Below, in pieces: positions 32,028 to 61,248 of a DNA stretch of 64,000 nt. The position numbers were made by a program, and so were the translations under genes. The notes under the pieces are model-generated. The model was not told where the DNA came from. It saw only the letters and a list, made by a program, of their open reading frames with translations, and ran no database searches. Origin of the DNA: a virus; IMG/VR virus record IMGVR_UViG_3300035670_000025. The stretch is one strand, 5' to 3'. Every line of letters begins with the position of its first letter. The stretch's first letter is position 1.

Positions 32028-32951
32028 ATGGATAGATATTTTCAAAAACTGCCAAATCTATATTACAATAATTATCTCGTCAAGGATATCTCTAGACGAG
32101 CAAAACTTATTGAAGAACCTCGTAAGTCTCCTTACTTATTTTATCCATACGAAATTAAACACCAACTTCGTTCTGATCATATCGCAGAATACTATTATAA
32201 TGATTCAGAACTTGATTGGTTAATCTATATGTCAAACGAAATCATCGATCCATATTATCAATGGTATCTAAATGATGCTCAGTTTGAATCTTTAATCATT
32301 GAAAAATATGGTTCAATAGAACACGCACAAAAGAAAATTATTTTCTATAGAAATAATTGGGATTCTGATGATAGAGAACTGTCCGTATCATTTTATAATA
32401 ATACACTTCAACAATCATGGAAGAAATACTATTCTCCAATATGGGGACCAGGAAACAAAATTGTTTCTTATAAAAGAAAACAATTTGATGCAACAACAAA
32501 TTTAAACAGAATAGTAGAATACAACATCTCGGCAAATAATACATCAAACGGATTTATTGCTGGAGAACTTGTTGATATTAAGATTCCAGGACAAGATGCA
32601 ACCGTTGGAACAGGTGAAGTAATTATAGCAAACTCAACAATATTAAGAATAAAGAATGTTGATGGAAATACATCAGCAAACTCCACATTTAATAAAACTA
32701 TTGTTGGTGAAACAACTTTTGCAAATGTAACAGTATCTAATGCAGATATAACATTTCAAAACTTTACTGTTGATGAAGGGGTATTTTGGTCTGCTGTTTC
32801 TTATTATGATTATGAAACAGAAATAAATGAACAGAAAAAGAACATTAAATTAGTTGGTTCTGGACAACACATTTTATTAGTTGACCAATTCCAACAAGCA
32901 ATGAATGAAGATGTAGATTCAACAACAAATCTGAGCACGAATATAACATAA
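32028..32951 (+). CDS. 53: baseplate wedge subunit gp53
   Basis: YFQKLP, RSDHIAEYYY, NEIIDPYYQW, YDYETEINEQKKNIKL. Confidence 0.9.
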   Translation: MDRYFQKLPNLYYNNYLVKDISRRAKLIEEPRKSPYLFYPYEIKHQLRSDHIAEYYYNDSELDWLIYMSNEIIDPYYQWYLNDAQFESLIIEKYGSIEHAQKKIIFYRNNWDSDDRELSVSFYNNTLQQSWKKYYSPIWGPGNKIVSYKRKQFDATTNLNRIVEYNISANNTSNGFIAGELVDIKIPGQDATVGTGEVIIANSTILRIKNVDGNTSANSTFNKTIVGETTFANVTVSNADITFQNFTVDEGVFWSAVSYYDYETEINEQKKNIKLVGSGQHILLVDQFQQAMNEDVDSTTNLSTNIT

Positions 32952-34276: not shown

Positions 34277-34282
34277 GTAAAG

Positions 34283-35272
34283 ATGGCATATAATCCTAGT
34301 GATAAACAAGGTCCGTTACAAAGTCAGACATTTCAATATGCTGTTGTGGTTGATGATAAAGACCCTGATGAATCAGGACGATTTAAATGTAGAATCCTTG
34401 GTGAGCAAGATGACCAAGGAAAAATACCAGACGAAAAATTGCCTTGGGTTGCTTGTTTAACAAATAATCAACCACAATTAAGACAAGTTGGAAAATTCCC
34501 TGCTGGCAATTATGCAATTGGTTCTAAAGTCTTATTATTTAATCTTGGACAACAAGGTTGGGTAATTATGGGATCAGTCACCAATCATGAAAAAGAAAAA
34601 AATAAAGCAGACAGACACGATGAGTCAACATCAACTTCTCTAAAGTTAGTTACCGCTGTTTTTGGTAACATATTCACAAAGATAATTGGAGGCAAAGGAT
34701 TATTTAATAATAAAACAGTTTCTGAAGGCATATCAGCAACAACACAGACTGCGTATTCGTTAATGAACGGAATATTACCATCTGTTCCATTTAATGGAGA
34801 TCCAATTAATGCCATAAAAACAATGGCAAAAACAGAAGCAAAATATGATTTAAGAGGAGCATCAAAAGTTTTATCTGGATTTTTGTCTTTTGGAAATGTT
34901 GCATTCAATAACATGGACATGACAAATCCTACAAAAGAAGTACAAAAAATATCTCAAGAATTAATACCAAATGCTGTTAATATGATTGAACAATTAAAAA
35001 CAACTGCTAAATCTGGTCAAAACATATTAGCAAATTTATCTGTTGGTGGATTTGGAAACATATTAGGTGCGATACAGGGAATAGCATCTTTAATAAAACA
35101 AGAATCAAACCGAGACAACAAAAAAGATAATGAAAATGCACTGGAAGAAGAATTAAGAAGACTGTATAAAGAATTAACTAAAAAAGAACCACTGAATGAA
35201 TTTGGTAAAGAAACCGCACAATATATAAAATGGAAACAAGCATATTTGAACGGAGAAATATTATATGAGTAA
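34283..35272 (+). CDS. 5: gp5 N-terminal OB-fold part
   Basis: VVDDKDPDESGRFKCRILG...LPW...GSKV...IMGS. Confidence 0.8.
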   Translation: MAYNPSDKQGPLQSQTFQYAVVVDDKDPDESGRFKCRILGEQDDQGKIPDEKLPWVACLTNNQPQLRQVGKFPAGNYAIGSKVLLFNLGQQGWVIMGSVTNHEKEKNKADRHDESTSTSLKLVTAVFGNIFTKIIGGKGLFNNKTVSEGISATTQTAYSLMNGILPSVPFNGDPINAIKTMAKTEAKYDLRGASKVLSGFLSFGNVAFNNMDMTNPTKEVQKISQELIPNAVNMIEQLKTTAKSGQNILANLSVGGFGNILGAIQGIASLIKQESNRDNKKDNENALEEELRRLYKELTKKEPLNEFGKETAQYIKWKQAYLNGEILYE

Positions 35273-35882
35273 TAGATATGAAGATCCAGGCAAACAAAGA
35301 GCAAACGAAACAACAACACCAGAATCAAAATACCCATATAATCATGTATATCAAACTGCTGGTGGAATCAGAGTAATTGTTGGAAATGAACCTGGAAAAG
35401 AAGCATTGAAGGTATTTCATCCATCGGGATCATATGTAGAATTTATGCCAAATGGCAAAGTAGTTTCTATGAATATAGGTGAAAACAAACAATATAATAA
35501 AGGTGGAGTAACAATTACTGTAGATGAAAATAATGATGTTCATATTAAAGGACATTCAAAATTACAAGTTGGTGGTGGAACACACATAGAAGTTGCTGGT
35601 GATGCAGGAATTGTTGTCGGAGGATCGGTTGCAATGTCAATGCCACAAGGAGATTTGGGAATACAAGCAAAAAATGTTTATATGGGAGCAACTGGCAATT
35701 TTAATTTAAATGTTGAAGGAACAATGAAAATTTCTTCTAAAGGAAGAGGAGTGCTCGAATCATCTGAAGTTTTAAGAGTAGGATCAGCAACCGAAGTTGA
35801 TGTTCAATCTCCAGCAACAAACTTAAATAAGTCTGGAGGTGCTTCAGGATATGCAGGACCAGAAAGTCCTGGAGAAGCATAA
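35265..35882 (+). CDS. 5: gp5 C-terminal beta-helix spike part
   Basis: YPYNHVYQT.GG, PGKE....HPSGSYVE, VxG repeats. Confidence 0.85.
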   Translation: MSNRYEDPGKQRANETTTPESKYPYNHVYQTAGGIRVIVGNEPGKEALKVFHPSGSYVEFMPNGKVVSMNIGENKQYNKGGVTITVDENNDVHIKGHSKLQVGGGTHIEVAGDAGIVVGGSVAMSMPQGDLGIQAKNVYMGATGNFNLNVEGTMKISSKGRGVLESSEVLRVGSATEVDVQSPATNLNKSGGASGYAGPESPGEA

Positions 35883-35884
35883 AA

Positions 35885-36181
35885 ATGCCAGGGGCACATA
35901 GAGATACGGATTTTAGACTTTGTGGGGCAAGAACAATAGTAACAGAACAAAATTCTGTTAGAGTAAACGGATTGTTATGGTCTGTTGAAGATGATATTTG
36001 TGATCATGGATTGAGTGGACCACTAAAACCAATCGTCGGAGATTCCGTCAAAATTCACGGAAAAAAAGTAATTGTGTTTGGAGACCAAGCAAAAACACAA
36101 GACAGTGAAGGGCATGATCCAGCAACAGGAACAATACCATTACAAAGAAGTCAAAATGTTTTTGCATACGGACAAGGATAA
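35885..36181 (+). CDS. PAAR-like spike tip protein
   Basis: MPGAHRDTD.R.CGA.T...V.VNG...CDHG. Confidence 0.8.
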   Translation: MPGAHRDTDFRLCGARTIVTEQNSVRVNGLLWSVEDDICDHGLSGPLKPIVGDSVKIHGKKVIVFGDQAKTQDSEGHDPATGTIPLQRSQNVFAYGQG

Positions 36182-36187
36182 CAAAAA

Positions 36188-36610: not shown

Positions 36611-36613
36611 TAA

Positions 36614-40989: not shown

Positions 40990-41017
40990 ATGTGAACAAA
41001 GAAATTAAAGGAAGACG

Positions 41018-42232
41018 ATGGCAAAGAAAATAGTTCAAACAGGTTCATCACCAAACGACGGCACAGGAGACACTCTCCGAGATGCAATGACGAAGGTGAA
41101 TGATAATTTTACCGAAATTTATACCGGATTAGCATTTCTTGGATTATCAAATTCTGCCACAATAACAGCAAACTCTTTAGGATTTTCTAATACAGATAAT
41201 GTTTTATTTGTATCATTAGCAAATTCTAAATTTCCAGTGAACACAGAAGTAACATATACCGTTCCATCTGGCAACACACCAATTTCACCATTAACAGGCA
41301 ACACTGTTTATTATGTTTCATTTGCTAATTCTACAGCACTTGCTTTATCAGCAACTGAAGGTGGAGCAAATATTGATATTAATGATGCTAGAACAACCAG
41401 TTCAGGAGAATCACACTCGTTAACTAGTGATGTTGATTCAAACATTGTTTTTGCTACAGATTCAATTACACTAGAATCTGTAACTGTTAATACCACAAGC
41501 ATTTTCGTAGGAAATTCTACTGTAAATACTGTTGCTAATTCAACACACACAAAGATTTCAAACTCTACTACAAATTCTACATTAACCAGTACAGCATTGA
41601 GCATTGGAAATACTGTAGTAAATTCTACAGTAGTTTATTTGGCATCTAATCTTTATGTAAATTCCACGACAATATATGTTAGTAATGGCACATCAACAAA
41701 TGTGAATATTGTTGGGAATAGATTTGCTATAGGTAACAGTTCTGTAAACAACAACATAACATCAAATTCTATACACATTTCAAATACTAATGTAAACACA
41801 CAAATAACACTTAGACAAATTACATTAAATAACAATACTAGTGTTTCTGCTGTATACAGTGGAAATTCCATATCTATTGGAAACTCTACAGTAAATGTTT
41901 TTTCAAACTCTAGTTATTTGTTTGTACAAACTGCAAATGTTGCGACAAATACTGGATTAACTCTAGGCAGTTCTACATCAGCAGCAAACGGATATACATT
42001 TTTACCAAATGGACTTAAATTAAATTGGGGATGGGTTTCTGCAAATAGCAGTGACGGCAATGCTACATTTACTTCAGCATATACGACAAATTGTTGGTCT
42101 GTTACTGCAACTAGTAATACTAGTGTTGCTACATATCAAGCATCTGTACAAAGTGTAAATAATACTGTTGCTGTTATAAGAACTGCTAATGCAACATCTA
42201 CAAATGTATTTTGGATGTCTATAGGATCTTAA
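41018..42232 (+). CDS. gp9/gp10-like N-terminus fused to a short fibre
   Basis: PNDGTGDTLRDAMTKVNDNFTEIY; C-terminal GYTFLPNGLKLNWG fibre-tip motif. Confidence 0.75.
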   Translation: MAKKIVQTGSSPNDGTGDTLRDAMTKVNDNFTEIYTGLAFLGLSNSATITANSLGFSNTDNVLFVSLANSKFPVNTEVTYTVPSGNTPISPLTGNTVYYVSFANSTALALSATEGGANIDINDARTTSSGESHSLTSDVDSNIVFATDSITLESVTVNTTSIFVGNSTVNTVANSTHTKISNSTTNSTLTSTALSIGNTVVNSTVVYLASNLYVNSTTIYVSNGTSTNVNIVGNRFAIGNSSVNNNITSNSIHISNTNVNTQITLRQITLNNNTSVSAVYSGNSISIGNSTVNVFSNSSYLFVQTANVATNTGLTLGSSTSAANGYTFLPNGLKLNWGWVSANSSDGNATFTSAYTTNCWSVTATSNTSVATYQASVQSVNNTVAVIRTANATSTNVFWMSIGS

Positions 42233-43819: not shown

Positions 43820-46800
43820 ATGGCATTAGAAAAAGACCTCAACGTCCCACCATATTTTGATGATTATGATCCAGAAAAGAATTATTATAGAGTTTTGTAT
43901 AGACCTACTGTTGCTGTTCAAGCAAGAGAATTGACACAACAACAGACAATATTACAATCTCAAATTGAAAGATTTGGAAATCATGTATTCAAAGATGGTT
44001 CAATTGTTGACGGTGTTGGTATAATTTATTATCCTAATGTTCATTTTATTGCGGTTGATGATTTCTTTTCATTTGCAAACGGATTAATTTCTGATATTTA
44101 TCCAACCACACTAACATCTAATACTGAAGAAACATATCTTGTAACAAATTCTACAGAATCAAACAGTGCAGTTCGTGCAACAATAAGAATTGCGAAAGAT
44201 GGTACTAAAGAAAATGCAAATAATACTTTTAGGGAAACAAATAGATTTTATTTAGATTATACTTTTACGGGAACAGATCTTGATGGAGATGATGTTAATA
44301 GATTTGCTCCTGGAGATACATTATATTTTTATAATTCCAATCAGAACAAATTTGGAACATTAGATGCTAATAATTTAACATATACAATTAATGCGTTGTC
44401 GTCTAATAGTGTATTTGATGCTGATGGAAATGCCTATTTGATTGGATGTACAGATGGTACAATTTATCAAAAAGGATTTTTCAGTTTAGTTAATAGACAA
44501 GTTATTACTGTCAGAGATTTTTCAACGAATGTAGATTCATATGTAGTTGGATTTGATACTACAGAAACAATTGTTGATGAAAATCAAGATGAATCTTTAT
44601 TGGATAATGCGTTAGGATATCCAAATGAAAATGCTCCTGGTGCACATAGATTAAAGTTGACCCCAACTTTAGTTTCCAAATTAAACACTGATACTTCAAA
44701 CAACAAAAATTTCTTTGCTATTGTTGAATTTGATAACGGATTTCCAACACAACAAAAAGATGATCCGTTTTATAATGTTTTAAACGAACAACTTGCAAGA
44801 AAAACATATGAAGAATCTGGAGATTATGTAGTCAATCCTTTTCAAGTAGAATCTATATTAGATGAAAACGATTCTCAACAATTTCGTTACAGAATATCTC
44901 CTGGAATAGGATATGTGAGAGGAAATAGAATTGAAAAAGTTGGAACATCGAAAGTAACTGTTCAGAAAGCAACAATAACAGAGGTTGCTGAAAACCAAAT
45001 AATAACAGCAAATTATGGAAATTATGTCATATGTAATGAATATTTGGGACAATTTGATTTTAAAAAATTGTCTGAAATTTCTTTATATGACCAACCACAA
45101 AAATCTATTTCTGAATATGAAGGAATTACAACGATTCCATCAGGGTCTGTTGTAGGATATGCTAACATAAGAGCAGTTGTTCATGAAGATGGTACAAAAG
45201 GATCTCCAAATGCTAGATATTATCTATATTTGTTTAATATAAGAATGAATTCTGGGAAAAATTTTTCCACAGATGTTAAAAGTATGTACATGGATGGAAC
45301 TTTTGGGAAAGCAAAAGCAGACATTATTCTTGAAAATGGAATTGCAGTAATAAAAGAATCTACAAAAACACAATCATATTTTGATACTGGGTTATCTGCG
45401 ATAAAGAGATTGACCAATAATACTGGCATAGGAGATACTAGTTTTATTTACAATCAAATAAAACAAGCAACACTTGCGACAGATGGTACAATATCTGTGA
45501 CCATAGATACTGCATATGCTGGCGCATCTTCAGAAAGATTAAATTCTACTACTGGTTCAACTTTAACAGGAAATTCTTTAGACGATTATAATATTTGCAT
45601 ATCATCAAGTACATATACTGCAAATTTAACAAGCACAGTTGCAGTAACATCAGGCACAAAGACCATAACAGGGTCAGGAACAAATTTTACCACAGAATTG
45701 GAAGCAAATTGTAATATAAGAATATATGCAAACACAACACAAACATATATCAGAAGAGTTGTTTCAATTGCAAATAACACATCTTTAACAATTGATACTG
45801 CATTACCATTTAGTAATGGCACATCTAATTATCAAAGATTTTTTGTTGCTGGATCACCATTGCCAATTCAATCTATTTCTATAACTTCTAACACAACATT
45901 TACAGCAAACGTAAACATACCAACAGCATCTTTTGACTCTGCAACAACACCACAAACAGTTTATTGTTCTTATCCAGTTAATAGAAATCAAGCAATTTCT
46001 ATTCCAAAAATAATTAACAAATCCAGATATGTAAAAATTAATTGTTCAAACAACACAACCACAACAACAGGTCCATGGGATTTGGGGCTTGTAGATGTTC
46101 ACAAAATAAAAAACATATATGTTGGAACAACATATGCAAACACAAATGCAGAGAGATCAACTTGGTTTGAATTAGATACAGGACAAAGAGATTCCTTTTA
46201 TGATCATGGCAGATTAATTGTAAAACCAGAATATTCTTCTGAAATAACAAGTTCAACAAGAATTCTCGTAGAATTAGATGTTTTTACAGCAAACTCCTCT
46301 GCCTCTATTGGATTTTTTTCAGTAGAATCTTATCCAATAGATGATGCAAACACTGCAAATACAACTGCTATACAAACAATAGAAATACCAACATATCAAA
46401 ATGTTAGTTTGAGAAATGTTATTGATTTTAGACCAGTAAAATACAACACAGCAAACGTTAATGCAACTGCAATTGGAGATGCTACAGAAAATCCAGCAAC
46501 ATCAAACACATCATTCAATGTTTCTGCATCTGGACAGCATTTTATCGCACCTGATTCTAATTTCACAGCAGACATTGAAAATTATTTACCACGAATTGAT
46601 TTGGTTACTCTTGATCCAAATGGTGTTTTTACAGTAAAACAAGGACAACCATCTACATTACCAAGAGCACCTTTTGTTGATGGTGATAGAAGCATAATTG
46701 CAGAATGTTATGTTCCAGCATATCCAACACCAACTAGAAAAGATTTTGAATTATATGGTCCTAACATAGATTATATTAGAATCAACTTAAAGACAAATAA

Positions 46801-49800
46801 AAGATATACTATGAAGGATGTTGGAACTCTAGAAGATAGAATTAGAAGATTAGAATATTATACGGTATTAAATGCATTAGAACAACAAGCTAAAGATTTG
46901 ACTATTCCAGATGCCAACGGATTAGATAGATTTAAAAATGGAATATTTGCAGACCCATTCAATTCTCATGGGTTGGGTAATGTTTCTGATATAGAATATA
47001 AAATATCAATTGATAAAGATGAAACTGTTGCCAGACCTATTTTTGATGTTCATGATGTCGATTTTAGATATATCAGTTCTAATTCTACCAACGTCCAAAT
47101 GACTGGACCAATTTTAACACTACCATATAATGAAGTAGTTGCTATTGGACAAAGATACGCTACAAAAGTAAGAAATACAACAGAAGCACTATGGCAATGG
47201 AACGGAAGAGTAAAACTATATCCATCTTATGATTTTTATCGTGATAGTAAAGAAGCACCAAACGTAAATGTAAATCTGGACTTAAGTACAGCATGGGAAA
47301 AATATGCAAACATGCCTTGGGACAAACTAGGATTACAAAATCCATTCTCGGCAATATATGGAGATTGGAGAAATGTTAAGAATTTGTCTGTTACTTCAGA
47401 ATCTGTTGTTGATGGTTATATAACCACAACAACAACGACAACAGAAACTTTGCAACAACAAATTGTAAAGCAAATGAAAATCAATTCTATTAATGAAGAA
47501 ATAAATTTGGGTTCATATGTAAAAGATATTACAGTACAACCTTATATGAGATCAAGGATTGTTGCTTTTGTTGCAACAAATATGAAACCAAATACTACTC
47601 TTCATGCATTTTTTGATGATATTAATGTAGATGAATATTGTGTTCAAGGAAATTTAAATGAAGATGATTTTCCAATCATTCCTGGTGTTCCAATTGCAGT
47701 AGCCGAAGGACAAGAAGATCTTGTCGTAAAACAACAAGTAGGATTTAATTGGGGAGAGGGATTAACATCAGACGCAAATGGATTTGTATGCGGGTTGTTT
47801 AGAATTCCTGAAGCACAATTCAGGACAGGAGATAGAGTATTTCAATTAACAAATGTTGATGATCTAGTTATTGGAGCTTCTGCGCAAATAACAACCTCAA
47901 AAGCAACCTTTACAGCAGATAACATTGCAGTGACAAAAGGTTCAACTACGATTAATATCAGGCAACCAGAATTTAATTACACAGAAACAGTAAAAGAAAG
48001 AACCATACAAAGCATTTCCGTTGATGTTGTTGATAATACTCCACAACAAACATATATACACGATGATCCAATCGCACAATCATTTTATGTAGAACCTCCA
48101 GAATACATTCCTGGTGTTTTTATGACAGGTGTGGGTGTATATTTTAAAAGCAAAGATCAAAATCTTGGGTGTTCTGTGTATCTTTGTGAAATGGAAAATA
48201 ATATGCCAGACACAAGGAGAATTTTGGCATCTTCATATTTAGAATCAAGTGCAATTTCTACAAGCAACAATGCTTCATTGGAAACAAAATTTAATTTTGA
48301 TTATCCTGTATACCTACTAAGAAATCAATATGCATTTTTTGTTCAACCTGACGGCAACAGTCCAGAATATCTAATATGGACTGCTGAAACAGGGGGGTAT
48401 GATGTTTCTTCAAATACACAAATTTTCTCCAATCCTTATACTGGATTGATGTTTATATCTGCAAATAGAGATACATGGACCGCATTTCAAAAAGAAGATT
48501 TGAAATTTAATATATATAGACCAAATTTCACTTCAAACACAGGAACTGCAATATTTAAAAATGATGATGACGAATTTTTAACTGTTGACGGATTTACTAA
48601 AGCAAATTCTTCAACAAGACTAGAAATTGGAGATACAGTATTTACTGTTAACACAACATCAGTTGATGTTGCAAATATTAATAGTATAATAGCAAATACT
48701 TTAGTTACAAATTTTGTTTCTGGTAGAATACAATATTTTGATGAAGCAAACGGTACACTATGGTTAGATTCTTCAACTGCAAATTCTACAACATATTTTT
48801 CAAATACAACAAATAAAACAATTGCAATTTATAGACCACAGGACGCATCAAACACATCCCATATCAATGTAAGCACTCTTGTTGCCTATGCTAATATTGT
48901 TACTGTTAACAATTTGAAATATCATGCGGTTGTTCCTAAATTTGGAATATTAGAACCAACAAGAACCTCTTTATCATTTTCATTTAAAGGCACATCAAAT
49001 TCAAACACATTTGATACAAAATACCAAAATGTTATCAATGAACTTGATTACCAATTCATTGATAATGAAAGACATATTGTGTCTAGGTCAAATGAAATAA
49101 CTTCTTTATCTTCAAATAAATCTTCAGAGTTTAAAATTGAATTGTCTACAGAGAATAGTTTGATTTCTCCTGTAATCAATCTTTCAAGAAAAGTAATGAT
49201 GTTTGTTCAAAATATTATCAATGATGATAATACTGATGAACACACCCGATATGGAAATGCAGCAAGCAAATATATTTCTAAAAAAGTTGTGTTGGCAGAC
49301 GGACAAGAAGCAGAGTCTTTGAACATTTATCTTACAGCATATAGACCTGTAGAAACTAATGTTGAAGTATATGCTAAATTTTTAAACAATGAAGATCCAC
49401 AACCATTTGATGATAAAGTATGGACAAAATTGCAGTATGCAAATAATAGCAATTTTATATATTCATCACAAACAAATACATCTGATTTTAAAGAATATTT
49501 GTTTACAGTACCTATCGTAAATTCTGTGCCATATGCAGCATTTGCAAATTCTGGATTTGATATATATAATCCTTTCCCTGGAGGGATATCAATCGAATCA
49601 AGCAATACCGCAATTTCTGCGAAAAAACACAATTTTAATGCAAACACACAAGTAAACAACACGAACGATACTATTACAATCACAGACGCAAATACATATT
49701 TTAGAGTAGGAGATCAAGTTTTATATTCTGTAGATTCTGGCAACACTGCAATAACAGGATTAATTTCAGGAATTTCTTATTTTATAAGTTATGCAAATGC

Positions 49801-50209
49801 CAGCCATATTGCACTTTCACAAACTAGAGATGGTGCTAATGTTGACATTGGTGCATCAACTACATCTGAAACAGGACATAATATTACAGGAACCTTCTTC
49901 TTGGAAGACATAACAGTAGGACAATTGATTAGAATAGAAGCAGATGATTATTTTGCTATAAGAACTGTTACTTCTATTGCAAACAATACATATCTTACGG
50001 TCGATAAAGGATTAGAACAAACAAACACAGCAGCAGTGTATTATATCTATCCAGATTCTCCAGATGATGGAATTGTGGAATATACAAACTCAGAAGGGTC
50101 AAGATTTGTTGGGTTTAAAGAATTTGCAATAAAAATTGTTCTATTATCAAATAATGCAGTAAGAGTGCCAAAATTGCAAGATGTAAGAGCAATTGCATTG
50201 CAAATGTGA
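43820..50209 (+). CDS. VrlC-like / DUF4815 giant virion structural protein
   Basis: LNVPPYFDDYD, VQARELTQQQTILQ.QIERFG, APGAHRL, RYTMKDVG.LE.RI..LEYYT, DPIAQSF, VRAIAL. Confidence 0.9.
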   Translation: MALEKDLNVPPYFDDYDPEKNYYRVLYRPTVAVQARELTQQQTILQSQIERFGNHVFKDGSIVDGVGIIYYPNVHFIAVDDFFSFANGLISDIYPTTLTSNTEETYLVTNSTESNSAVRATIRIAKDGTKENANNTFRETNRFYLDYTFTGTDLDGDDVNRFAPGDTLYFYNSNQNKFGTLDANNLTYTINALSSNSVFDADGNAYLIGCTDGTIYQKGFFSLVNRQVITVRDFSTNVDSYVVGFDTTETIVDENQDESLLDNALGYPNENAPGAHRLKLTPTLVSKLNTDTSNNKNFFAIVEFDNGFPTQQKDDPFYNVLNEQLARKTYEESGDYVVNPFQVESILDENDSQQFRYRISPGIGYVRGNRIEKVGTSKVTVQKATITEVAENQIITANYGNYVICNEYLGQFDFKKLSEISLYDQPQKSISEYEGITTIPSGSVVGYANIRAVVHEDGTKGSPNARYYLYLFNIRMNSGKNFSTDVKSMYMDGTFGKAKADIILENGIAVIKESTKTQSYFDTGLSAIKRLTNNTGIGDTSFIYNQIKQATLATDGTISVTIDTAYAGASSERLNSTTGSTLTGNSLDDYNICISSSTYTANLTSTVAVTSGTKTITGSGTNFTTELEANCNIRIYANTTQTYIRRVVSIANNTSLTIDTALPFSNGTSNYQRFFVAGSPLPIQSISITSNTTFTANVNIPTASFDSATTPQTVYCSYPVNRNQAISIPKIINKSRYVKINCSNNTTTTTGPWDLGLVDVHKIKNIYVGTTYANTNAERSTWFELDTGQRDSFYDHGRLIVKPEYSSEITSSTRILVELDVFTANSSASIGFFSVESYPIDDANTANTTAIQTIEIPTYQNVSLRNVIDFRPVKYNTANVNATAIGDATENPATSNTSFNVSASGQHFIAPDSNFTADIENYLPRIDLVTLDPNGVFTVKQGQPSTLPRAPFVDGDRSIIAECYVPAYPTPTRKDFELYGPNIDYIRINLKTNKRYTMKDVGTLEDRIRRLEYYTVLNALEQQAKDLTIPDANGLDRFKNGIFADPFNSHGLGNVSDIEYKISIDKDETVARPIFDVHDVDFRYISSNSTNVQMTGPILTLPYNEVVAIGQRYATKVRNTTEALWQWNGRVKLYPSYDFYRDSKEAPNVNVNLDLSTAWEKYANMPWDKLGLQNPFSAIYGDWRNVKNLSVTSESVVDGYITTTTTTTETLQQQIVKQMKINSINEEINLGSYVKDITVQPYMRSRIVAFVATNMKPNTTLHAFFDDINVDEYCVQGNLNEDDFPIIPGVPIAVAEGQEDLVVKQQVGFNWGEGLTSDANGFVCGLFRIPEAQFRTGDRVFQLTNVDDLVIGASAQITTSKATFTADNIAVTKGSTTINIRQPEFNYTETVKERTIQSISVDVVDNTPQQTYIHDDPIAQSFYVEPPEYIPGVFMTGVGVYFKSKDQNLGCSVYLCEMENNMPDTRRILASSYLESSAISTSNNASLETKFNFDYPVYLLRNQYAFFVQPDGNSPEYLIWTAETGGYDVSSNTQIFSNPYTGLMFISANRDTWTAFQKEDLKFNIYRPNFTSNTGTAIFKNDDDEFLTVDGFTKANSSTRLEIGDTVFTVNTTSVDVANINSIIANTLVTNFVSGRIQYFDEANGTLWLDSSTANSTTYFSNTTNKTIAIYRPQDASNTSHINVSTLVAYANIVTVNNLKYHAVVPKFGILEPTRTSLSFSFKGTSNSNTFDTKYQNVINELDYQFIDNERHIVSRSNEITSLSSNKSSEFKIELSTENSLISPVINLSRKVMMFVQNIINDDNTDEHTRYGNAASKYISKKVVLADGQEAESLNIYLTAYRPVETNVEVYAKFLNNEDPQPFDDKVWTKLQYANNSNFIYSSQTNTSDFKEYLFTVPIVNSVPYAAFANSGFDIYNPFPGGISIESSNTAISAKKHNFNANTQVNNTNDTITITDANTYFRVGDQVLYSVDSGNTAITGLISGISYFISYANASHIALSQTRDGANVDIGASTTSETGHNITGTFFLEDITVGQLIRIEADDYFAIRTVTSIANNTYLTVDKGLEQTNTAAVYYIYPDSPDDGIVEYTNSEGSRFVGFKEFAIKIVLLSNNAVRVPKLQDVRAIALQM

Positions 50210-53439: not shown

Positions 53440-53499
53440 AATAGACACTATTATAATATAACGGATAATTTTTATACTGACTAATTTATGGAGTGAGAC

Positions 53500-54018: not shown

Positions 54019-54064
54019 GTAGGCATATTTGCCAATCAGTATATACTGATTTAGGAGACCAAAA

Positions 54065-54763
54065 TTGGCCAATACAATATTCAAATTACGAAGATCTTCT
54101 GTTGCTGGTAAAGCACCAAACACATCTACATTAAGCATTGGTGAACTAGCAATCAATCTCACAGATAGAAAACTATATTCATCTGACGGAACAAATATAT
54201 TTGAAACAGGTAGTAATTTAACATCATTATCTGTATTTTCTGATATAAAAATAGGAAATAGTTCTGTTAATTCTAGTATCAATTCTACTTCTTTTTCTGG
54301 TGCTTCTAATTCTGCCACATATGCCAATGCATCTATATCAAATACCTTTACTGTAGGAAATTCTGTTTATTTTGTTGCTAATGGTAATGTTGGTATTGGC
54401 ACAAGCAGTCCTTCATATCCATTAGATGTCGCAGGGAATATAAATTCCTCAAATACAGTCTTTGCTGTCCATTTTGATAATGTGTCTGATATTTCTCTCA
54501 AAGAAAATATTCAACAAATCAATAATTCAATTGATATAATCAATCAATTCAATCCTGTGTCTTTTCAATGGAAAAACAATAAAAACATTTCATATGGTTT
54601 AATTGCTCAGGAAATTGAGAAAATTCTACCTTCAATTGTACACGAAAAAGCAGATGGTACAAAAACAATTAACTATATTGAAATAATTGCTTTTCTAATT
54701 GCAGCAATTAAAGAACAACAAAAGCAAATAGATAATATAAATAGTAATATCAACAATGCCTAG
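54065..54763 (+). CDS. short fibre with C-terminal S74 intramolecular chaperone
   Basis: KLRRSSVAGKAP...GELAIN; SDISLKENI...GLIAQE; TTG start. Confidence 0.85.
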   Translation: MANTIFKLRRSSVAGKAPNTSTLSIGELAINLTDRKLYSSDGTNIFETGSNLTSLSVFSDIKIGNSSVNSSINSTSFSGASNSATYANASISNTFTVGNSVYFVANGNVGIGTSSPSYPLDVAGNINSSNTVFAVHFDNVSDISLKENIQQINNSIDIINQFNPVSFQWKNNKNISYGLIAQEIEKILPSIVHEKADGTKTINYIEIIAFLIAAIKEQQKQIDNINSNINNA

Positions 54764-54783
54764 TAATCCAACGGAGGTCGAAA

Positions 54784-55101
54784 ATGGCAAAGTACTCAAC
54801 AACTAAAACACTTAAAAAAGCACAACCCACAGTTAATATTGCTGACAATATTGTCAAAAAGTGGGATATTGAAGTAATATACAAACACACAAGAAATGAT
54901 GGAACAACATGGTCTCGTGCATATCCACATACAGAAGATGTGGAATATCTTAACAAAACAACATCACAATTCACAAAAGCAGAATTGATTGGTTTTATGC
55001 CACCAAATATGGATGTAATTTTTGATGCTCACTATGAAGCACATAATACACCAGCAACCGAAGAAAAAGTATCTGATTTTAATATTAACGATTTGAACTA
55101 A
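54784..55101 (+). CDS. hypothetical fibre-associated protein
   Basis: GGAGG RBS; TATAAATA at 54736-54743. Confidence 0.7.
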   Translation: MAKYSTTKTLKKAQPTVNIADNIVKKWDIEVIYKHTRNDGTTWSRAYPHTEDVEYLNKTTSQFTKAELIGFMPPNMDVIFDAHYEAHNTPATEEKVSDFNINDLN

Positions 55102-55109
55102 AAGGATGA

Positions 55110-55829
55110 ATGATTATGAAAAAAATGAAAAATGTAAAGACAGAAACTCCAGAAGTTTCTGAACAACCTAAAATGCGAACTGTTATGCTTGCAGCACCCT
55201 CTTATGATGGAAAAGTGAATGTATGGCATGCATCTGCATTATCGGAAACCTGTAAAATTGGTTTAACAAGAAATATCAATGTTATTGCTGTTTATATGAG
55301 TTTTGATGCTTTAGTTCAAAGAGCAAGGAATGATATTGTTAAGATGGCAATAGATTCTAATGTTGATGATTTATTCTTCATTGATTGTGATATGGATTGG
55401 AATCCAAATGATTTCTTTCGGATGTTAGAATATGATGTTGGTATTGTTGGTGCACCTGTTGTTAAGAAAAGTGATTTTGAACAATACAATGTTAAATTAA
55501 CATCACAACTAAAGATTGAAGATAATGGTTTATCAATTGTAGATGCAGTTGGTACAGGAATGATGCGTATTAGGAGAGATGCTTTATTGAAACTATGGGA
55601 AGCAAGTCCTGAATACAAAGAACCACATAAACCTGAACCAACAAGAATGGTATTTGACATTCAAGTTATTGATGGACAATTAGTTAGTGAAGATATTGTA
55701 ATGTGTAGAAAATGGGTTGATATGGGTGAAAAGATTTATATTGATCCAGTTGTAAGTTGTGGACATTCTGGTGAAAAGAGATGGATTGGCAATTTTTACG
55801 AATGGTATAAAGTAAATATTAGAAGGTAA
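55110..55829 (+). CDS. GT-A fold glycosyltransferase within the tail fibre cluster
   Basis: LVQRARN, FFIDCD (DxD), VGTGMM, SEDI..C, CGHSG. Confidence 0.8.
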   Translation: MIMKKMKNVKTETPEVSEQPKMRTVMLAAPSYDGKVNVWHASALSETCKIGLTRNINVIAVYMSFDALVQRARNDIVKMAIDSNVDDLFFIDCDMDWNPNDFFRMLEYDVGIVGAPVVKKSDFEQYNVKLTSQLKIEDNGLSIVDAVGTGMMRIRRDALLKLWEASPEYKEPHKPEPTRMVFDIQVIDGQLVSEDIVMCRKWVDMGEKIYIDPVVSCGHSGEKRWIGNFYEWYKVNIRR

Positions 55830-55832
55830 AAA

Positions 55833-58571
55833 ATGGCAATAAAAATCCAAGGTTCGGTTGTTTTGGATTATGATGGTGCTAGTTATTCTAGCACCAACAT
55901 TGCTGTTGGTATTGATGCGTTGAAGAATAATACAACAGGCATTAGTAATGTAGCAGTTGGTTATCAAGCATTATTTGATAATACAACAGGTGTTAATAAT
56001 ACAGCAGTTGGTTTTCAAGCATTATATACAAATACAATAGGCGGTGATAATACAGCAGTTGGTCGTCAAGCATTATTTTCAAATACAACAGGTGTTAATA
56101 ATACAGCAGTTGGTTTTCAAGCATTATATACAAATACAATAGGCGGTGATAATACAGCAGTTGGTTATCTAGCATTATTTTCAAATACAACAGGTGTTAA
56201 TAATACAGCAGTTGGCAGATCAGCATTATATACAAATACAACAGGCGGTGATAATACAGCAGTTGGTCGTCAAGCACTTGGTGCAAATACAACAGGGGTT
56301 GATAATACAGCAGTTGGTTTTCAAGCATTATTTGATAATACAATAGGTGTTAGAAATACAGCAGTTGGTGATAGCACACTAGCAAACAATACAACAGGCA
56401 ATGATAATACAGCAGTTGGCAGATCAGCACTAAATGCAAATACAACAGGCATTAATAATACAGCAGTTGGTGTAGAAGTACTAAATTCAAATACGATTGG
56501 TATTGAAAATACAGCAGTTGGTCGTGGTGCTTTATTTGCAAATACAACAGGCAGTAATAACACATCGGTTGGAAGATTATCATTAAGATTTAATACAATA
56601 GGCAATGATAACACAGCAGTTGGATTTGCAGCACTATATTCAAACACAACAGGAGTTGATAATACAGCACTTGGACAATCAGCACTATATTCAAACACAA
56701 CAGGCAATGATAATACAGCAGTTGGTAGATCAGCACTATCATCAAACACAACAGGTGTTAGAAATACAGCAGTAGGTTTAAATTCACTTTATGCAAATAC
56801 AACAGGCAATGATAATACCGCAGTTGGCAGAGATTCGCTGGAAAATAACACAACAGGTGTTAGTAACACAGCAGTTGGTTCTCCTGCATTAGAAAGTAAT
56901 ACAACAGGTGTTAGAAATACAGCAGTTGGTGGTTCAGCACTACTTTCAAATACAGTTGGTATTGATAATACAGCAATTGGTGCGCAAGCATTACAAAATA
57001 ACACAACAGGCAACAATAATACAGCAGTTGGTAGAGGATCATTACTAGCAAATACAACAGGTATTGAAAACACAGCAGTTGGTTATCTAGCATTATTTGA
57101 TAATACAATAGGTGTTAGAAATACAGCAATCGGTGAAAACACACTAGCAAACAATACAACAGGCACTGATAATACAGCAGTTGGCCGACGAGCATTATTT
57201 ACAAATACAACAGGTGCTCATAACACCGCAGTTGGAATGACTGCACTATTAAGTAATACAATAGGTATTAATAATATAGCAGTTGGTTCTGCAAGTTTAT
57301 ATAATAATACAACAGGTGTTAGTAATGTAGCAGTTGGTAGATCAGCATTATTAAGTAATACAATAGGTGTTGAAAATACAGCAGTTGGTTTGCAGGCACT
57401 ATATTCAAATATAACAGGTGTTAGTAATGTAGCAGTCGGAATGAATGCATTATATTACAATACAACAGGCAATTATAATACAGCAGTTGGTAGATCAGCA
57501 CTATTTAATAATACAACAGGTTACTACAATACAGCAGTTGGTCAGGGAGCACTATTTAATAGTACAACTGGTGTTAATAATACAGCAGTTGGTTTAAACG
57601 CACTATATTCAAATACAATAGGTGTTAATAATACAGCAGTTGGATTGAATGCATTATATTACAATACAACAGGCACTAATAATACAGCAGTTGGTGTTAA
57701 TGCATTATATTACAATACAACAGGTTACTACAATACAGCAGTTGGATTGAATGCATTATTATCAAATACAACAGGTATTCAAAATACAGCAGTTGGTTAT
57801 CAAGCATTAATTCTTAATACAACAGGTTACTACAATACAGCATTTGGTGTTAATGCATTATATTCAAATACAACAGGTGTTCAAAATACAGCAGTTGGTC
57901 AAAATGCGTTATACTCCAACACAATTGGTTATGATAATGTAGCAGTTGGATTGAATGCATTATATTACAATACAACAGGTTACTACAATACAGCAGTTGG
58001 TCAGGGAGCACTATTTAATAGTACAACTGGTGTTAATAATACAGCAGTTGGTCGGCATGCTCTAATTTCAAATACAACAGGTGTTAATAATACAGCAGTT
58101 GGTCTAACAGCAGGAAGCAACATAACAACAGGAACCAACAATACATTACTTGGATATAATGCACAACCATCATCAGCAACAGTATCAAACGAATTTACTT
58201 TAGGTGATGCTAATATAAGTAATCTTCGTTGTGCTGATACCTCCATTTCATCTCTATCAGATATCCGTGATAAAACAAATATCCAAAATATACCAGTTGG
58301 TCTCAATTATATCAAAGCAGTTAGACCAGTTATGTTTGATTGGAATACCAGAGATAGAACCAGAAAAGGTAAAAAAGATTTTGGTTTCATAGCACAAGAA
58401 TTGGATCAAGTAGAACAACAATTTGGTTATGCTGAATATACCAGATTAGTTCATAAAGAAAATCCCGATAAATGGGAAGCAGATCCAATGAAAATGTTTC
58501 CTATTCTAATTAAAGCAATACAAGAATTATCAGAAGAAGTAGAACAACTTAAAGCAAAATTAGCAGCATAA
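55833..58571 (+). CDS. long beta-roll tail fibre with S74 chaperone
   Basis: About 44 repeats of 17 aa; SDIRDKTNI...GFIAQE...LIKAIQEL. Confidence 0.9.
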   Translation: MAIKIQGSVVLDYDGASYSSTNIAVGIDALKNNTTGISNVAVGYQALFDNTTGVNNTAVGFQALYTNTIGGDNTAVGRQALFSNTTGVNNTAVGFQALYTNTIGGDNTAVGYLALFSNTTGVNNTAVGRSALYTNTTGGDNTAVGRQALGANTTGVDNTAVGFQALFDNTIGVRNTAVGDSTLANNTTGNDNTAVGRSALNANTTGINNTAVGVEVLNSNTIGIENTAVGRGALFANTTGSNNTSVGRLSLRFNTIGNDNTAVGFAALYSNTTGVDNTALGQSALYSNTTGNDNTAVGRSALSSNTTGVRNTAVGLNSLYANTTGNDNTAVGRDSLENNTTGVSNTAVGSPALESNTTGVRNTAVGGSALLSNTVGIDNTAIGAQALQNNTTGNNNTAVGRGSLLANTTGIENTAVGYLALFDNTIGVRNTAIGENTLANNTTGTDNTAVGRRALFTNTTGAHNTAVGMTALLSNTIGINNIAVGSASLYNNTTGVSNVAVGRSALLSNTIGVENTAVGLQALYSNITGVSNVAVGMNALYYNTTGNYNTAVGRSALFNNTTGYYNTAVGQGALFNSTTGVNNTAVGLNALYSNTIGVNNTAVGLNALYYNTTGTNNTAVGVNALYYNTTGYYNTAVGLNALLSNTTGIQNTAVGYQALILNTTGYYNTAFGVNALYSNTTGVQNTAVGQNALYSNTIGYDNVAVGLNALYYNTTGYYNTAVGQGALFNSTTGVNNTAVGRHALISNTTGVNNTAVGLTAGSNITTGTNNTLLGYNAQPSSATVSNEFTLGDANISNLRCADTSISSLSDIRDKTNIQNIPVGLNYIKAVRPVMFDWNTRDRTRKGKKDFGFIAQELDQVEQQFGYAEYTRLVHKENPDKWEADPMKMFPILIKAIQELSEEVEQLKAKLAA
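55929..58172 (+). repeat. about 44 tandem 51-bp coding repeats
   Basis: NTTGxxNTAVGxxALxx; nucleotide core AATACAGCAGTTGG. Confidence 0.95.
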
Positions 58572-58614
58572 ATATAAATAATAATAAAAACACTAACCAA
58601 GGGAGAATAGGAAC

Positions 58615-61248
58615 TTGGCAGACAAGAACTTTGAAGTCCGCAAAGGACTTACAGTAGCAAATACCGTAATCGTAACATCAGGTGCTAATGTTGGTATCAA
58701 TAATACATCACCAACACATACTTTATCCGTCAACGGAACTGGATTCGTAAATACTTCTTTACAAGTATCAACCACCGTCACAGCAAATGCAACTGGGTTA
58801 TATGTTGGTCTTGTCAATGCAACTACCATCACTACTACTACTATAAATGCAACAACAATTAATGCCAGTTCTTACGGTACTATAAATTCAACAAGTGTTA
58901 ATGCAATATCTATAAATGCTAACACAATAAATGCAGCATCACATACTGTTGGTACATCAACAATTGCTAATTCTACTGGTGTTTATACCACAGGAACAAT
59001 GAATGCAGCATCACATACTGTTGGTACATCAACAATTGCCAATTCTACTGGTGTTTATACTAACTTTGTTGGGTCTAATACTTTTATTGTTGGGAATACT
59101 ACAACTGGAACTGGTGGTAGTTTACAAAATACGACAACGGTTTTTGTTGGAAACAATCTTGTCAATACTTTGATTACTTCTGGAGGGTTGAATGTAAATG
59201 GAGCATCTTTAGTAAATAGTTCTGGTTTTCATACCAGTGGAAATTTGGCTATTGGTGGAACAATATTAATTGATGGTGTTGCGGGAAATACAAATGAAAT
59301 TATTGCTTCTGACGGAACTTCAGCATATTGGACTTCTTTTGGTCTTACTCCGGGTCTTATACCTTCAGAATATGTCCGTGATGATGAAAATGTTACTTTT
59401 AATGGAAATCTGGTATTTAATAGTTCCAACAATTCTTTTACAAATACTATTGGTTCTGTTACTATATCAACAAACACTTTTGTCGTTAATTCTAATACAT
59501 CTTTTTCTAGTCCTAATATATCCTTTAGTGGAACTAATCTCAGTGTTTCTTCAAATGCAAGTTTTAGTGGAAATTTATCAGTATTAAGAATAACATCTAC
59601 TCAAAATGTAACCACACTAGGAACAACTCTTTACATAACAACTTCTGGAAATGTTGGAATTTCAAATTCTGCACCAACACACAAATTTAGAGTAAACGGA
59701 ACATCATCGTTAGCAGGTGCAGTTAGTGATGTTACAACACTTTCTGCTGGAAATACAACAATAACAGGTTTTGTAAATTCTTCTGTATCAGTAAATTCTG
59801 CTTTAATAACAGTTGGTTCTTCAGTAATATCAAATACTTCTGGTGTTTATACCACAGGAACAATGAATGCTGCATCACATACTGTTGGTACATCAACAAT
59901 TGCAAATTCTACTGGTGTTTATACTACAGGAACAATGAATGCAGCATCACATACTGTTGGTACATCATTCGTTGCAAATTCTACTGTTGTAAATGCCTTC
60001 GCATATAATATTGGAACTGCTTTTATTGCTAATACTCTTGGGGCATATCATATAGGAACTGTAAACGCACAGTTGTTTTCTGTTGGTACAAGCACAATTG
60101 CTAATTCTACTGGTGTTTATACTACAGGAACAATGAATGCTGCATCACACACTGTTGGTACAAGCACAATTGCTAATTCTACTGGTGTTTATACCGGTGT
60201 AGTTAATGCTGCATCACACACTGTTGGTACAAGTACAATTGCTAATTCTACTGGTGTTTATACCGGTGTAGTTAATGCTGCATCACACACTGTTGGTACA
60301 AGTACAATTGCTAATTCTACTGGTGTTTATACTACAGGAACAATGAATGCAGCATCACATACTGTTGGCACATCAACAATTGCCAACTCTACTGGTGTTT
60401 ATACTGGTGTAGTTAATGCAACATCACATACTGTTGGCACAAATACAATTGCTAATTCTACTGGTGTTTATACTGGTGTAGTTAACGGTTCTACATTATC
60501 TGTTGGATCATCTGTAACCGCAAACTCAACACGGGTTGTTCTTGGAACCTCTGTAGGTTTACAAGCAAATGGTGGTATTGGCACTTCCGGACAAGTTTTA
60601 CACTCAAACGGAACCACTGTTTATTGGGCAACAGATGACCAAGGAGTGACATCTGTAGCAACTGGCAATGGTATGATTGGTGGAACTATTACTAGTACAG
60701 GAACCGTGTCTGTTCGTGCTAATACTGGTATAATAGCAAATGCTACTGGCACTTATGTAAATTCTGCTTATATTGCAACTATAGCATCAAACAGTGCAAC
60801 TTATGCTAATGCATCTATATCAAATACCTTTACTATAGGAACTTCTGTTTATTTTGTTGCTAATGGTAATGTTGGTGTTGGAACTGCATCTCCAGCAACG
60901 ACCCTAGATGTTTCTGGCACAGTATCTATTGCAAAAGCAAATGTACAATCACAAACATTAACAGATGCTTCAACAATTAGTTGGAATACTGCATTGGGAC
61001 AAATTGCTACAGTTACATTAGGTGGAAATAGAACATTTGGTGCACCAACCAATTTGAAAATTGGTACATATATTCTTCATGTTATACAAGATGGTGCCGG
61101 TAATAGAACAATGACTTGGAATTCTGTATTTAAATGGACAGCAGGGGTTGCGCCTCCATTAACAACAACAGGAGGAGCAAGAGATGTGTTTTCTTTTGTT
61201 TGTGATGGTACAAATCTATATGGATCATTCTTACCGGATGTAAAATAA
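58615..61248 (+). CDS. long tail fibre protein
   Basis: MADKNFEVRKGL N-terminus, GNVGI motifs, internal repeats; TATAAATA at 58573-58580; TTG start. Confidence 0.85.
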   Translation: MADKNFEVRKGLTVANTVIVTSGANVGINNTSPTHTLSVNGTGFVNTSLQVSTTVTANATGLYVGLVNATTITTTTINATTINASSYGTINSTSVNAISINANTINAASHTVGTSTIANSTGVYTTGTMNAASHTVGTSTIANSTGVYTNFVGSNTFIVGNTTTGTGGSLQNTTTVFVGNNLVNTLITSGGLNVNGASLVNSSGFHTSGNLAIGGTILIDGVAGNTNEIIASDGTSAYWTSFGLTPGLIPSEYVRDDENVTFNGNLVFNSSNNSFTNTIGSVTISTNTFVVNSNTSFSSPNISFSGTNLSVSSNASFSGNLSVLRITSTQNVTTLGTTLYITTSGNVGISNSAPTHKFRVNGTSSLAGAVSDVTTLSAGNTTITGFVNSSVSVNSALITVGSSVISNTSGVYTTGTMNAASHTVGTSTIANSTGVYTTGTMNAASHTVGTSFVANSTVVNAFAYNIGTAFIANTLGAYHIGTVNAQLFSVGTSTIANSTGVYTTGTMNAASHTVGTSTIANSTGVYTGVVNAASHTVGTSTIANSTGVYTGVVNAASHTVGTSTIANSTGVYTTGTMNAASHTVGTSTIANSTGVYTGVVNATSHTVGTNTIANSTGVYTGVVNGSTLSVGSSVTANSTRVVLGTSVGLQANGGIGTSGQVLHSNGTTVYWATDDQGVTSVATGNGMIGGTITSTGTVSVRANTGIIANATGTYVNSAYIATIASNSATYANASISNTFTIGTSVYFVANGNVGVGTASPATTLDVSGTVSIAKANVQSQTLTDASTISWNTALGQIATVTLGGNRTFGAPTNLKIGTYILHVIQDGAGNRTMTWNSVFKWTAGVAPPLTTTGGARDVFSFVCDGTNLYGSFLPDVK
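59866..60540 (+). repeat. about 10 tandem 69/72-bp coding repeats (two more copies at about 58930-59060)
   Basis: NAASHTVGTSTIANSTGVYT(TGTM/GVV). Confidence 0.9.

Follow-up and report, generated by a model that had tools for sequence, protein, structure and literature searches.

The 64,000-nucleotide stretch of DNA analysed here (IMG/VR record IMGVR_UViG_3300035670_000025; hereafter the window) carries, at positions 32,028 to 61,248, the module in which an uncultured T4-like phage encodes its baseplate and its host-recognition (fibre) proteins. An initial annotation, made from the letters alone, had noticed that the tail and baseplate proteins of this module are dense in N-X-S/T sequons and had suggested that the tail may be selected for Asn-linked glycans, as part of a virion glycosylation system. 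We found that such a selection is not supported, because most of these proteins show no excess of sequons over shuffled controls, the pooled excess is of the size found in phages T4 and Cr30, Asn residues directly followed by Ser/Thr are equally enriched, homologous fibres of phages without a detectable glycosyltransferase (GT) are as dense in sequons, and no GT41 enzyme was found in the open reading frames (ORFs) scanned. The sequon density of this module is thus probably not a signature of N-glycosylation. The proposed virion glycosylation system thereby loses its sequon argument and gains independent support of another kind: a gene encoding a predicted GT-A fold glycosyltransferase (55110..55829, + strand) is an almost obligate neighbour of one family of tandem-repeat fibres on three phage backbones. 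Judging from gene order and predicted structure, this cassette is a plausible candidate for tail-fibre glycosylation that is undescribed as far as literature searches show, since neither N-glycosylation of phage tail fibres nor a pairing of this GT with the fibre came up in them.

The overall explanation that we favour, and consider reasonably probable, is that the richness in N-X-S/T would be a by-product of tail proteins that are rich in Asn, Ser and Thr, of a tendency of Asn toward Ser/Thr at both +1 and +2, as in T4 and Cr30, and of two tandem-repeat fibres whose units happen to contain N-T-T or N-S-T, that the conserved N-x-S/T motifs of the baseplate protein gp53 would be structural, and that the GT-A enzyme would act on the fibre encoded beside it. 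Taken on its own, the proposal that this GT-A enzyme glycosylates the adjacent repeat fibre has, in our estimate, a substantial chance of being right that falls a little short of even.

Sequon counts, controls and the gp53 insertion

The hand counts of the initial annotation were all exact on recount. The gp53 protein (32028..32951, + strand; 307 aa) contains 13 sequons in all, and 11 of the 19 Asn residues of its last ~150 aa lie in sequons; the gp9-like fibre connector (41018..42232, +) contains 21, five of them within the last 70 aa; the short fibre (54065..54763, +) contains 11, all inside the first 180 aa; and the VrlC-like giant tail protein (43820..50209, +) contains 50, by contrast with two in gp32 and one in PhoH. 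These counts were compared with whole-protein shuffles, with local shuffles in 20- or 40-residue windows and with a repeat-masked version of the same test, and the outcome was divided. An excess was detected for gp53 (13 sequons versus 4.2-5.3 expected, z 4-4.8, with 13 being reached by 6 of 200,000 shuffles, p = 3e-5), for the VrlC-like protein (50 versus 35-38, p about 0.004-0.013), for the 54065 fibre (11 versus 6.6, p about 0.03) and for the repeat-masked 58615 fibre, whereas the shuffles revealed none in the 41018 connector (21 versus 17.8, z 0.9), in the 50443 protein or in gp6, gp7, gp8 and gp48. The protein starting at 51913 gave 20 sequons versus 14-15 expected (p about 0.04-0.08). 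For the 50443 protein, the initial annotation had itself warned that 11 of 35 Asn in sequons is close to what composition predicts, and this was correct, as was its broader caveat that Asn, Ser and Thr are abundant in these proteins anyway: composition and repeats explain most of the sequons. The two largest raw excesses, in the 55833-58571 fibre (54 versus 28-31) and in the 58615-61248 fibre (43 versus 29-31), are found where they are because these are tandem-repeat proteins; with repeats masked, the values were 3 versus 1.4 and 27 versus 17.3, respectively. Over the whole module with repeats masked, 188 sequons were counted versus 152 expected, a 1.24-fold ratio.

When the same statistic was applied to the structural proteins of control phages, it gave 114/95.6 for T4 (1.19-fold), 118/95.6 for Cr30 (1.23-fold) and 92/93 for Mosig, which places the pooled excess of the module at the level of T4 and Cr30. 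T4 is not known to glycosylate its own virion. Outside gp53, the signal is a local clustering of Asn with Ser/Thr and not a motif specific to the +2 position: Asn with Ser/Thr at +1 was as enriched as the sequon in the VrlC-like protein (z 3.0 versus 3.0), and the corresponding values were 2.6 versus 3.3 in the 58615 fibre, 4.6 versus -1.3 in gp6-8 and 4.4 versus 0.9 in the 41018 and 50443 proteins taken together. Among 117 homologues of the densest stretch of the VrlC-like protein, the sequon reached 1.37-fold of expectation, the reverse pattern 1.57-fold and N-[ST] 1.64-fold. The family mean z was 1.2 over the aligned stretch 560-960, and of the sequon positions in the dense stretch, homologues share about nine, with about ten others being specific to the lineage.

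The tandem-repeat fibres allowed a position-by-position comparison. The 912-aa fibre (55833..58571, +) is made of ~42 copies of the 17-residue unit L-x-x-N-T-T-G-x-x-N-T-A-V-G-x-x-A, and the 877-aa second repeat fibre or adhesin (58615..61248, +) contains ~10 copies of ...TIANSTGVYT... together with degenerate I-N-A-x runs. In a sample of 644 distinct 17-residue units from 32 fibres, the position +2 to the first Asn of intact units was occupied by T (222), I (40), S (12) or V (9), and this Asn was retained in 84% of the units with I/V/L at +2 versus 74% of those with S/T. The association of the Asn with Ser/Thr at +2 (N0-[ST]2, odds ratio 1.7) was also weaker than that with the following Gly (N0-G3, 10.9) or with a distant Leu (N0-L14, 2.9). 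Such a usage, with beta-branched residues tolerated and Ser seldom found, fits a constraint imposed by a putative strand or solenoid, not a requirement for a hydroxyl, and the repeat statistics argue against a site defined on Asn by a sequon. Homologous fibres are also present in the complete genomes of Methylophilales phage Venkman and of Roseobacter phages CRP-1 and CRP-7, in which no GT1, GT2, GT9, GT41 or GT-A homologue was detectable, and the sequon density of these fibres (3.8-5.1 per 100 aa) was the same as that of GT-linked fibres (4.2-5.9 per 100 aa). The initial annotation had set an equal density in relatives lacking glycosyltransferases beforehand as an outcome that refutes its proposal, and this is what we found. 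Considering this equal density and the tolerance for I/V at +2, the N-T-T of the fibre repeat was rejected as a selected sequon.

Only gp53, among the non-repeat proteins, has a strong excess that is specific to the +2 position (z 5.0 versus 0.4 at +1). The protein was identified through its match to phrog_232 (E = 2.8e-30), the PF11246 domain of its homologues and a T4 gp53 fold: its AlphaFold model (pLDDT 87.8) predicts a core that matches T4 gp53 (5iv5_BF, E = 2.5e-4; 5hx2_F, Z 8.7 over 169 residues), with an inserted beta-barrel of ~85 aa at residues ~160-245. This insert resembles the domain II-type barrels of EF-Tu and other translation factors (Z 6-6.7), a type that is also found in several phage baseplate proteins. 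The barrel (160-243) is an insertion that is absent from the gp53 proteins of T4, Cr30 and Mosig, and cultured phages match residues 1-125 only. Pooling 89 metagenomic gp53 homologues, we counted 574 sequons versus 364 expected, and across the 90 aligned sequences (query included) sequons are conserved at columns 202 (78 sequences), 218 (67), 233 (54), 245 (50) and 214 (34). The middle residues are conserved too, with S at 203 and 219, V/A at 234 and I/F at 246, so that the motifs read A-N-S-[ST], A-N-[VA]-[ST] and E-N-[IF]-[ST] and appear in the insert as A-N-S-T, A-N-V-T and E-N-I-T. They are placed by the model in a hairpin turn (202-204), in a loop (213-222) and at both ends of the 233-244 strand. 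In more distant homologues, the barrel is retained and most of the motifs are lost. Since the middle residue is conserved as well, and since N-x-S/T is the classic sequence of an Asx-turn, these four to five conserved motifs are probably structural motifs of the Asx-turn type.

The sugar genes that the initial annotation had reported in the window were confirmed from Pfam matches and predicted structure: in addition to the GT-A gene, a heptose-type cluster including a GT-B gene is found at 3867..9071 (+). The domains encoded by this cluster are a methyltransferase, a cytidylyltransferase-like protein, a HAD phosphatase, a GT1-family GT-B, an SDR epimerase, a GHMP kinase and a SIS isomerase, a Pfam content of the nucleotide-heptose type whose product is putative. 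The annotation was also right that no N-glycosyltransferase (NGT) homologue is visible in the window, as the GT41/NGT domain PF13844 was detected neither in the sizeable ORFs of the window nor in a complete 156-kb relative with terminal repeats (G001), nor in nine other related or fibre-bearing records; PF01075 (GT9) likewise gave no match on the window ORFs that were scanned against Pfam. The heptose pathway, the GT-A gene and the sequon-rich domain of gp53 are not inherited together: G001 has GT-A and the fibre, and lacks the gp53 insert, the heptose kinase and the sugar cluster; a second relative (G002) has GT-A and a gp53 with only 4 sequons; and a third (G003) combines the heptose kinase with a 9-sequon gp53 and has no GT-A in the available 57% of its genome. 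No correlation of gp53 sequons with GT-A or with the heptose kinase was visible in this sample, which was limited by fragmentary contigs. Since this kinase is missing from G001, which keeps both GT-A and the fibre, heptose is, judging from gene content, not required for the GT-A/fibre cassette.

The model put forward in the initial annotation would be that a cytoplasmic enzyme of phage or host origin, be it GT-A or an NGT whose gene lies elsewhere, adds N-linked sugars (possibly heptose made by the phage) to the sequons of tail, baseplate and fibre proteins, and that these sequons are under selection for it. Known soluble N-glycosyltransferases are all GT41 enzymes and not GT-A enzymes (PMC3012730, PMC10507012), and GT41 is missing from the scanned ORFs of the window and from G001. 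We now regard this model as improbable, even though several features agree with it, namely the gp53 count (13 versus 4.2) with its interchange of S and T at +2 in conserved columns, the dense VrlC-like stretch, the N-T-T of the fibre repeat, a GT gene that abuts the fibre gene and the presence of a heptose cluster. It has to be set against the lack of excess in most of the proteins, a pooled ratio that equals that of T4, the reverse and +1 patterns that are equally or more enriched, a repeat in which Asn is kept regardless of I/V at +2, the same fibre density in GT-less phages, and relatives (G001 and G002) in which GT-A is separated from the gp53 sequons. A periplasmic glycosylation of the PglB type was also considered and was rejected, as virions assemble in the cytoplasm.

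Several observations nevertheless weigh against the explanation that we favour, in which the sequons are by-products, the gp53 motifs are structural and GT-A acts on the fibre. The excess in gp53 is specific to +2, with Ser and Thr interchanging freely at this position, and a glycosite would look alike, so that the conserved gp53 motifs may be glycosites. Residues 591-920 of the VrlC-like protein of this phage contain 18 sequons versus 8.6 expected, at the top of the family distribution and with no matching excess of the +1 or reverse patterns, in a stretch that was picked post hoc. The GT41 negative in this genome concerns a 64-kb window, and ~87 kb of the genome, or the host, could still encode a GT41/NGT enzyme. 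Regarding the fibre, members of its family occur without this GT in Venkman, CRP-1, CRP-7 and P-SSM2, and the link from GT-A to the fibre is drawn from gene order alone, the GT-A fold not revealing the acceptor.

A GT-A glycosyltransferase beside a repeat fibre

The 239-aa protein encoded at 55110..55829 belongs to no Pfam family, and Pfam and PDB sequence searches with it returned nothing; structure prediction alone identified it. Its predicted model (pLDDT 91.8) gave 299 PDB matches at E <= 0.001 in Foldseek, the top 50 of which are all nucleotide-sugar enzymes. The best of these is the virion-associated glycosyltransferase A197 of Sulfolobus turreted icosahedral virus (STIV; 2c0n, E = 1.8e-9), followed by ColGalT1 (a collagen galactosyltransferase), LH3 and ppGalNAc-T, and lower down by A64R of Paramecium bursaria chlorella virus 1 (PBCV-1) and mimivirus R699; the best BFVD match had a TM score of 0.84. 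D92-x-D94-x-D96 (I-D-C-D-M-D-W) is invariant in 38 aligned homologues. By its predicted structure, then, this protein is a GT-A fold glycosyltransferase. Its family comprises 613 homologues, with 55-70% identity across phage backbones, and it is essentially virus-only: cellular matches amounted to one 1.7-kb contig of a metagenome-assembled genome among 185,579 cellular genomes, and its Atlas clusters are viral. Directly upstream lies a gene for a 105-aa protein (54784..55101, +), which is virus-only as well (the Atlas neighbours listed are 100% viral) and whose homologues (33-84% identity) adjoin GT-A in many loci, usually immediately 5' of it. The role of this small protein may be that of an accessory subunit or of a chaperone for the fibre.

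We gathered 42 viral loci through similarity to the GT, which fall into 23 clusters at 90% identity. In 35 of the 42 loci, GT-A has a homologue of the 17-residue-repeat fibre at most 1.5 kb away, and in two others the distance is 2.1 kb; four loci end at GT-A and are uninformative, and one divergent locus has no fibre. The fibre is thus within 2.1 kb of GT-A in 37 of 38 informative metagenomic loci. Three backbones are represented, which are a T4-like one, that of a ~37-kb phage with a P22-type coat and that of a ~63-kb phage from which both a gp6 homologue and a P22-type coat are missing. In T4-like contexts the order is short fibre, 105-aa ORF, GT and repeat fibre, with gaps of 0-19 bp. Other loci have a repeat fibre followed by GT, scaffold and P22-type coat (L053), a repeat fibre followed by a 100-aa ORF, GT, a methyltransferase, a 202-aa ORF, a GT17-like gene and a GT2 gene (L060), or a repeat fibre, a cytidylyltransferase-mannose-6-P-isomerase/cupin fusion, a 115-aa ORF, GT and a second repeat fibre (L069). 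GT-A lies in late structural modules, between fibre genes in the window and between fibre and scaffold/coat genes in L053. The association is one-way, as several cultured phages have the fibre without an adjacent GT.

Two of these loci contain further sugar-related genes. In the ~63-kb phage of locus L060 (IMGVR_UViG_3300013093_000054), GT-A is followed by four ORFs (8894-12108), three of which have sugar-related Pfam matches, and these ORFs directly follow a 1922-aa repeat fibre; they possibly form a multi-step glycan pathway inside a structural module. In L069 (IMGVR_UViG_3300034418_008706), the fusion of cytidylyltransferase-like and mannose-6-phosphate-isomerase (cupin) domains (6818-7663) lies between two giant repeat fibres, so that a putative sugar-activation gene is embedded in the fibre cassette. 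Homologous fibres of two Pelagibacter podophages also have an enzyme gene beside them: an annotated glycosyl transferase lies directly 3' of the repeat fibre in HTVC112P (gp49, L036:4439-5320) and in HTVC111P (gp53, L079:5091-5972). That of HTVC112P is not homologous to the GT-A of the window, has a marginal GT9 (heptosyltransferase)-like score and gave no informative match in PDB sequence searches.

Since all loci were found through GT similarity, they may stem from one ancestral cassette, and the adjacency could then be an inherited gene order with no functional link, GT-A acting on some other target such as DNA or a small molecule. We consider this very unlikely, given that the pair survives inversion of the order, intervening genes and transfer between three backbones, and given that GT-A sits in late structural modules, once directly ahead of scaffold and coat genes. 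By comparison, the DNA glycosyltransferases known from T4-type phages are encoded by early genes.

Another candidate for the target is the host envelope. GT-A may modify a glycan of the host (lipopolysaccharide (LPS) O-chain or capsule), for example masking the receptor of the fibre, and thereby block superinfection or the loss of progeny on debris, in which case enzyme and fibre would form a receptor-matched pair. This corresponds to the published reading of the GTs in the host-recognition clusters of pelagimyophages (PMC7029224), and it agrees with a fibre family that does not need the GT and with the GT17-like, GT2 and methyltransferase genes that follow GT-A in L060, as in polysaccharide clusters. 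If that was the case, however, the enzyme would be expected to track variable host glycans, and GT-A (55-70% identity) is far more conserved than the adjacent fibres (38-57%). The family is also virtually absent from the cellular genomes searched, unlike typical host-derived LPS genes; its gene has a late-promoter-like motif ahead of it and, in T4-like contexts, is separated from that of the fibre by 0-19 bp; and its closest structural matches are GT-A enzymes that glycosylate proteins or virions. A role on the host envelope is therefore the less probable one in our view, though it deserves to be kept in mind.

The motif in question is a T4-type late-promoter-like TATAAATA at 54736..54743 (+), 41 bp 5' of the operon formed by the 105-aa ORF and GT-A. 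Copies of TATAAATA lie 30-60 bp 5' of the starts of structural genes at 31006-31019 (with a divergent pair at 31006/31012), 36553, 40982, 51883, 54736, 58573 and 62180, and no T4-type late-promoter motif was found ahead of the heptose cluster. The total for the window, 14 such motifs versus 9.6 expected, is not significant in itself.

Under the explanation that we favour, GT-A would be made late together with the fibres and, as a soluble enzyme, would transfer a sugar to the new fibre protein while this is still in the cytoplasm, ahead of assembly. An O-linkage is at least as likely on this putative acceptor as an N-linkage, because the repeats are Thr-rich. In a more specific and more tentative form, the GT-A family, often with its 105-aa partner, would be a dedicated fibre glycosyltransferase that decorates each 17-residue NTTG/NTAVG unit on Thr or possibly Asn, and the pair would be a phage counterpart of HMW1C-HMW1 or TibC-TibA that moves as a two-gene cassette among at least three backbones of aquatic phages.

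Gene content of the module and its surroundings

The window has a G+C content of ~32% and includes replication genes of the T4 type (RNase H, gp32 and PhoH), and the T4-like baseplate and fibre module runs from 31 kb onward. The gp53 gene is followed by a tail protein gene at 32951 and by a gp5 homologue that is split in two overlapping ORFs (34283-35272 and 35265-35882), with matches to the N-terminal OB part of phrog_430 and to a part further along; no lysozyme domain was detected in them. Then come gp6 (36614), a gp7-like gene (38428), the N/S/T-rich gp9-like connector with its Gp53-like_C tip domain (phrog_677, PF21882), gp8 (42242) and the VrlC-like/DUF4815 protein of 2129 aa (phrog_358, with PF16075 on homologues). 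The short fibre at 54065 ends in a Peptidase_S74 chaperone domain (PF13884, E = 3.5e-16), as does the 912-aa repeat fibre (PF13884; phrog_6002, 23837 and 4636). The gene order of the module is that of Pelagibacter phage Mosig. In gp6, the nearest relatives in culture reach only 34-38% identity; they include Caulobacter phage Cr30, the phiM phages of Sinorhizobium, and myophages of Methylophilales and Pelagibacter. A megablast search with the module gave no match among cultured phages.

Two further features of this region were recorded. The 54065-54763 and 58615-61248 fibres have a nearly identical segment of ~35 residues in common (SATYANASISNTFT.G.SVYFVANGNVG.GT), which looks like a recombination joint between fibre modules. 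On the minus strand at 24048-28349, among baseplate hub genes, a VanY/D-Ala-D-Ala carboxypeptidase domain is encoded by an ORF of 1433 aa. The DNA there has a GC fraction of 0.40, versus 0.30-0.33 in its surroundings, and the ORF could encode a tape-measure or hub protein with a cell-wall hydrolase domain.

Comparison with known glycosylation systems

These results show that counting sequons is an unreliable indicator of glycosylation in phage fibres that are rich in Asn, Ser, Thr and repeats, and they provide usable controls, namely shuffled sequences, the masking of repeats, patterns at +1 or in reverse order, and relatives without glycosyltransferases. On the positive side, a small GT-A that is essentially confined to viruses is paired with one fibre family of abundant aquatic phages, in a way that can be tested. 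If this pairing reflects glycosylation of the fibre, virion glycosylation would extend beyond mycobacteriophages and to tail fibres, and enzyme and acceptor repeat would form a compact pair for glycoengineering.

Such a glycosylation of the fibre would also revise the reading of GTs in host-recognition clusters as modifiers of the host surface. In pelagimyophages, the GTs of such clusters are read as modifiers of the host O-chain, and there too GT genes stand among the tail-fibre genes of T4-like phages of aquatic bacteria; the pairing of one GT-A with one fibre, and its occurrence on non-T4 backbones, are not mentioned in the accessible part of that source (PMC7029224).

The HMW1C/NGT enzymes (GT41) of Haemophilus and Actinobacillus are soluble and cytoplasmic, are encoded beside the long repetitive HMW1 adhesin and modify it at many sites (PMC3012730, PMC10507012). 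As in that system, the GT gene of the window adjoins a gene for a repetitive protein, and the N-X-S/T acceptor motif occurs in the fibre repeat. The two differ in that the phage enzyme has a predicted GT-A fold with a DxD motif instead of the GT-B fold with TPR-like repeats of GT41, in that the repeats reveal no requirement for a hydroxyl at +2, and in that the presumed acceptor is a phage fibre and not a secreted bacterial adhesin.

In the bacterial autotransporter heptosyltransferase (BAHT) systems TibC and AAH, the transferase is encoded beside a beta-helical repeat adhesin (TibA or AIDA-I), which it hyperglycosylates on Ser/Thr in each repeat using ADP-heptose (PMC4358343, PMC3835316). The window resembles them in combining a heptose-type cluster with a Thr-rich, solenoid-type repeat, and the Pelagibacter podophages HTVC111P and HTVC112P do so in having a fibre gene followed by an annotated glycosyl transferase gene, GT9-like in HTVC112P. 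No GT9/BAHT gene was found among the scanned ORFs of the window, however, its GT-A is unrelated to these enzymes, and the cassette of G001 exists without a heptose kinase.

STIV A197 (2c0n), the best structural match, and PBCV-1 A64R (2p72), a lower-ranked one, are likewise small virus-encoded GT-A enzymes with a DxD motif. A197 has been linked to virion protein glycosylation (PMC10551542); for A64R, this link comes from its PDB title. Both are only 13-17% identical to the enzyme described here, belong to viruses of archaeal or algal hosts and are without a repeat-fibre partner. In mycobacteriophages, phage-encoded GTs glycosylate virion proteins, with glycans at the C-termini of capsid and tail-tube subunits of actinobacteriophages, according to Freeman et al. 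2023 as cited in PMC12619734 and PMC12801897. The system described here differs from these in the family of its GT, in its candidate substrate, a repeat tail fibre of aquatic phages, and in being known from genes alone; what both have in common is a phage-encoded GT together with a structural protein as its substrate, a candidate one in the present case.

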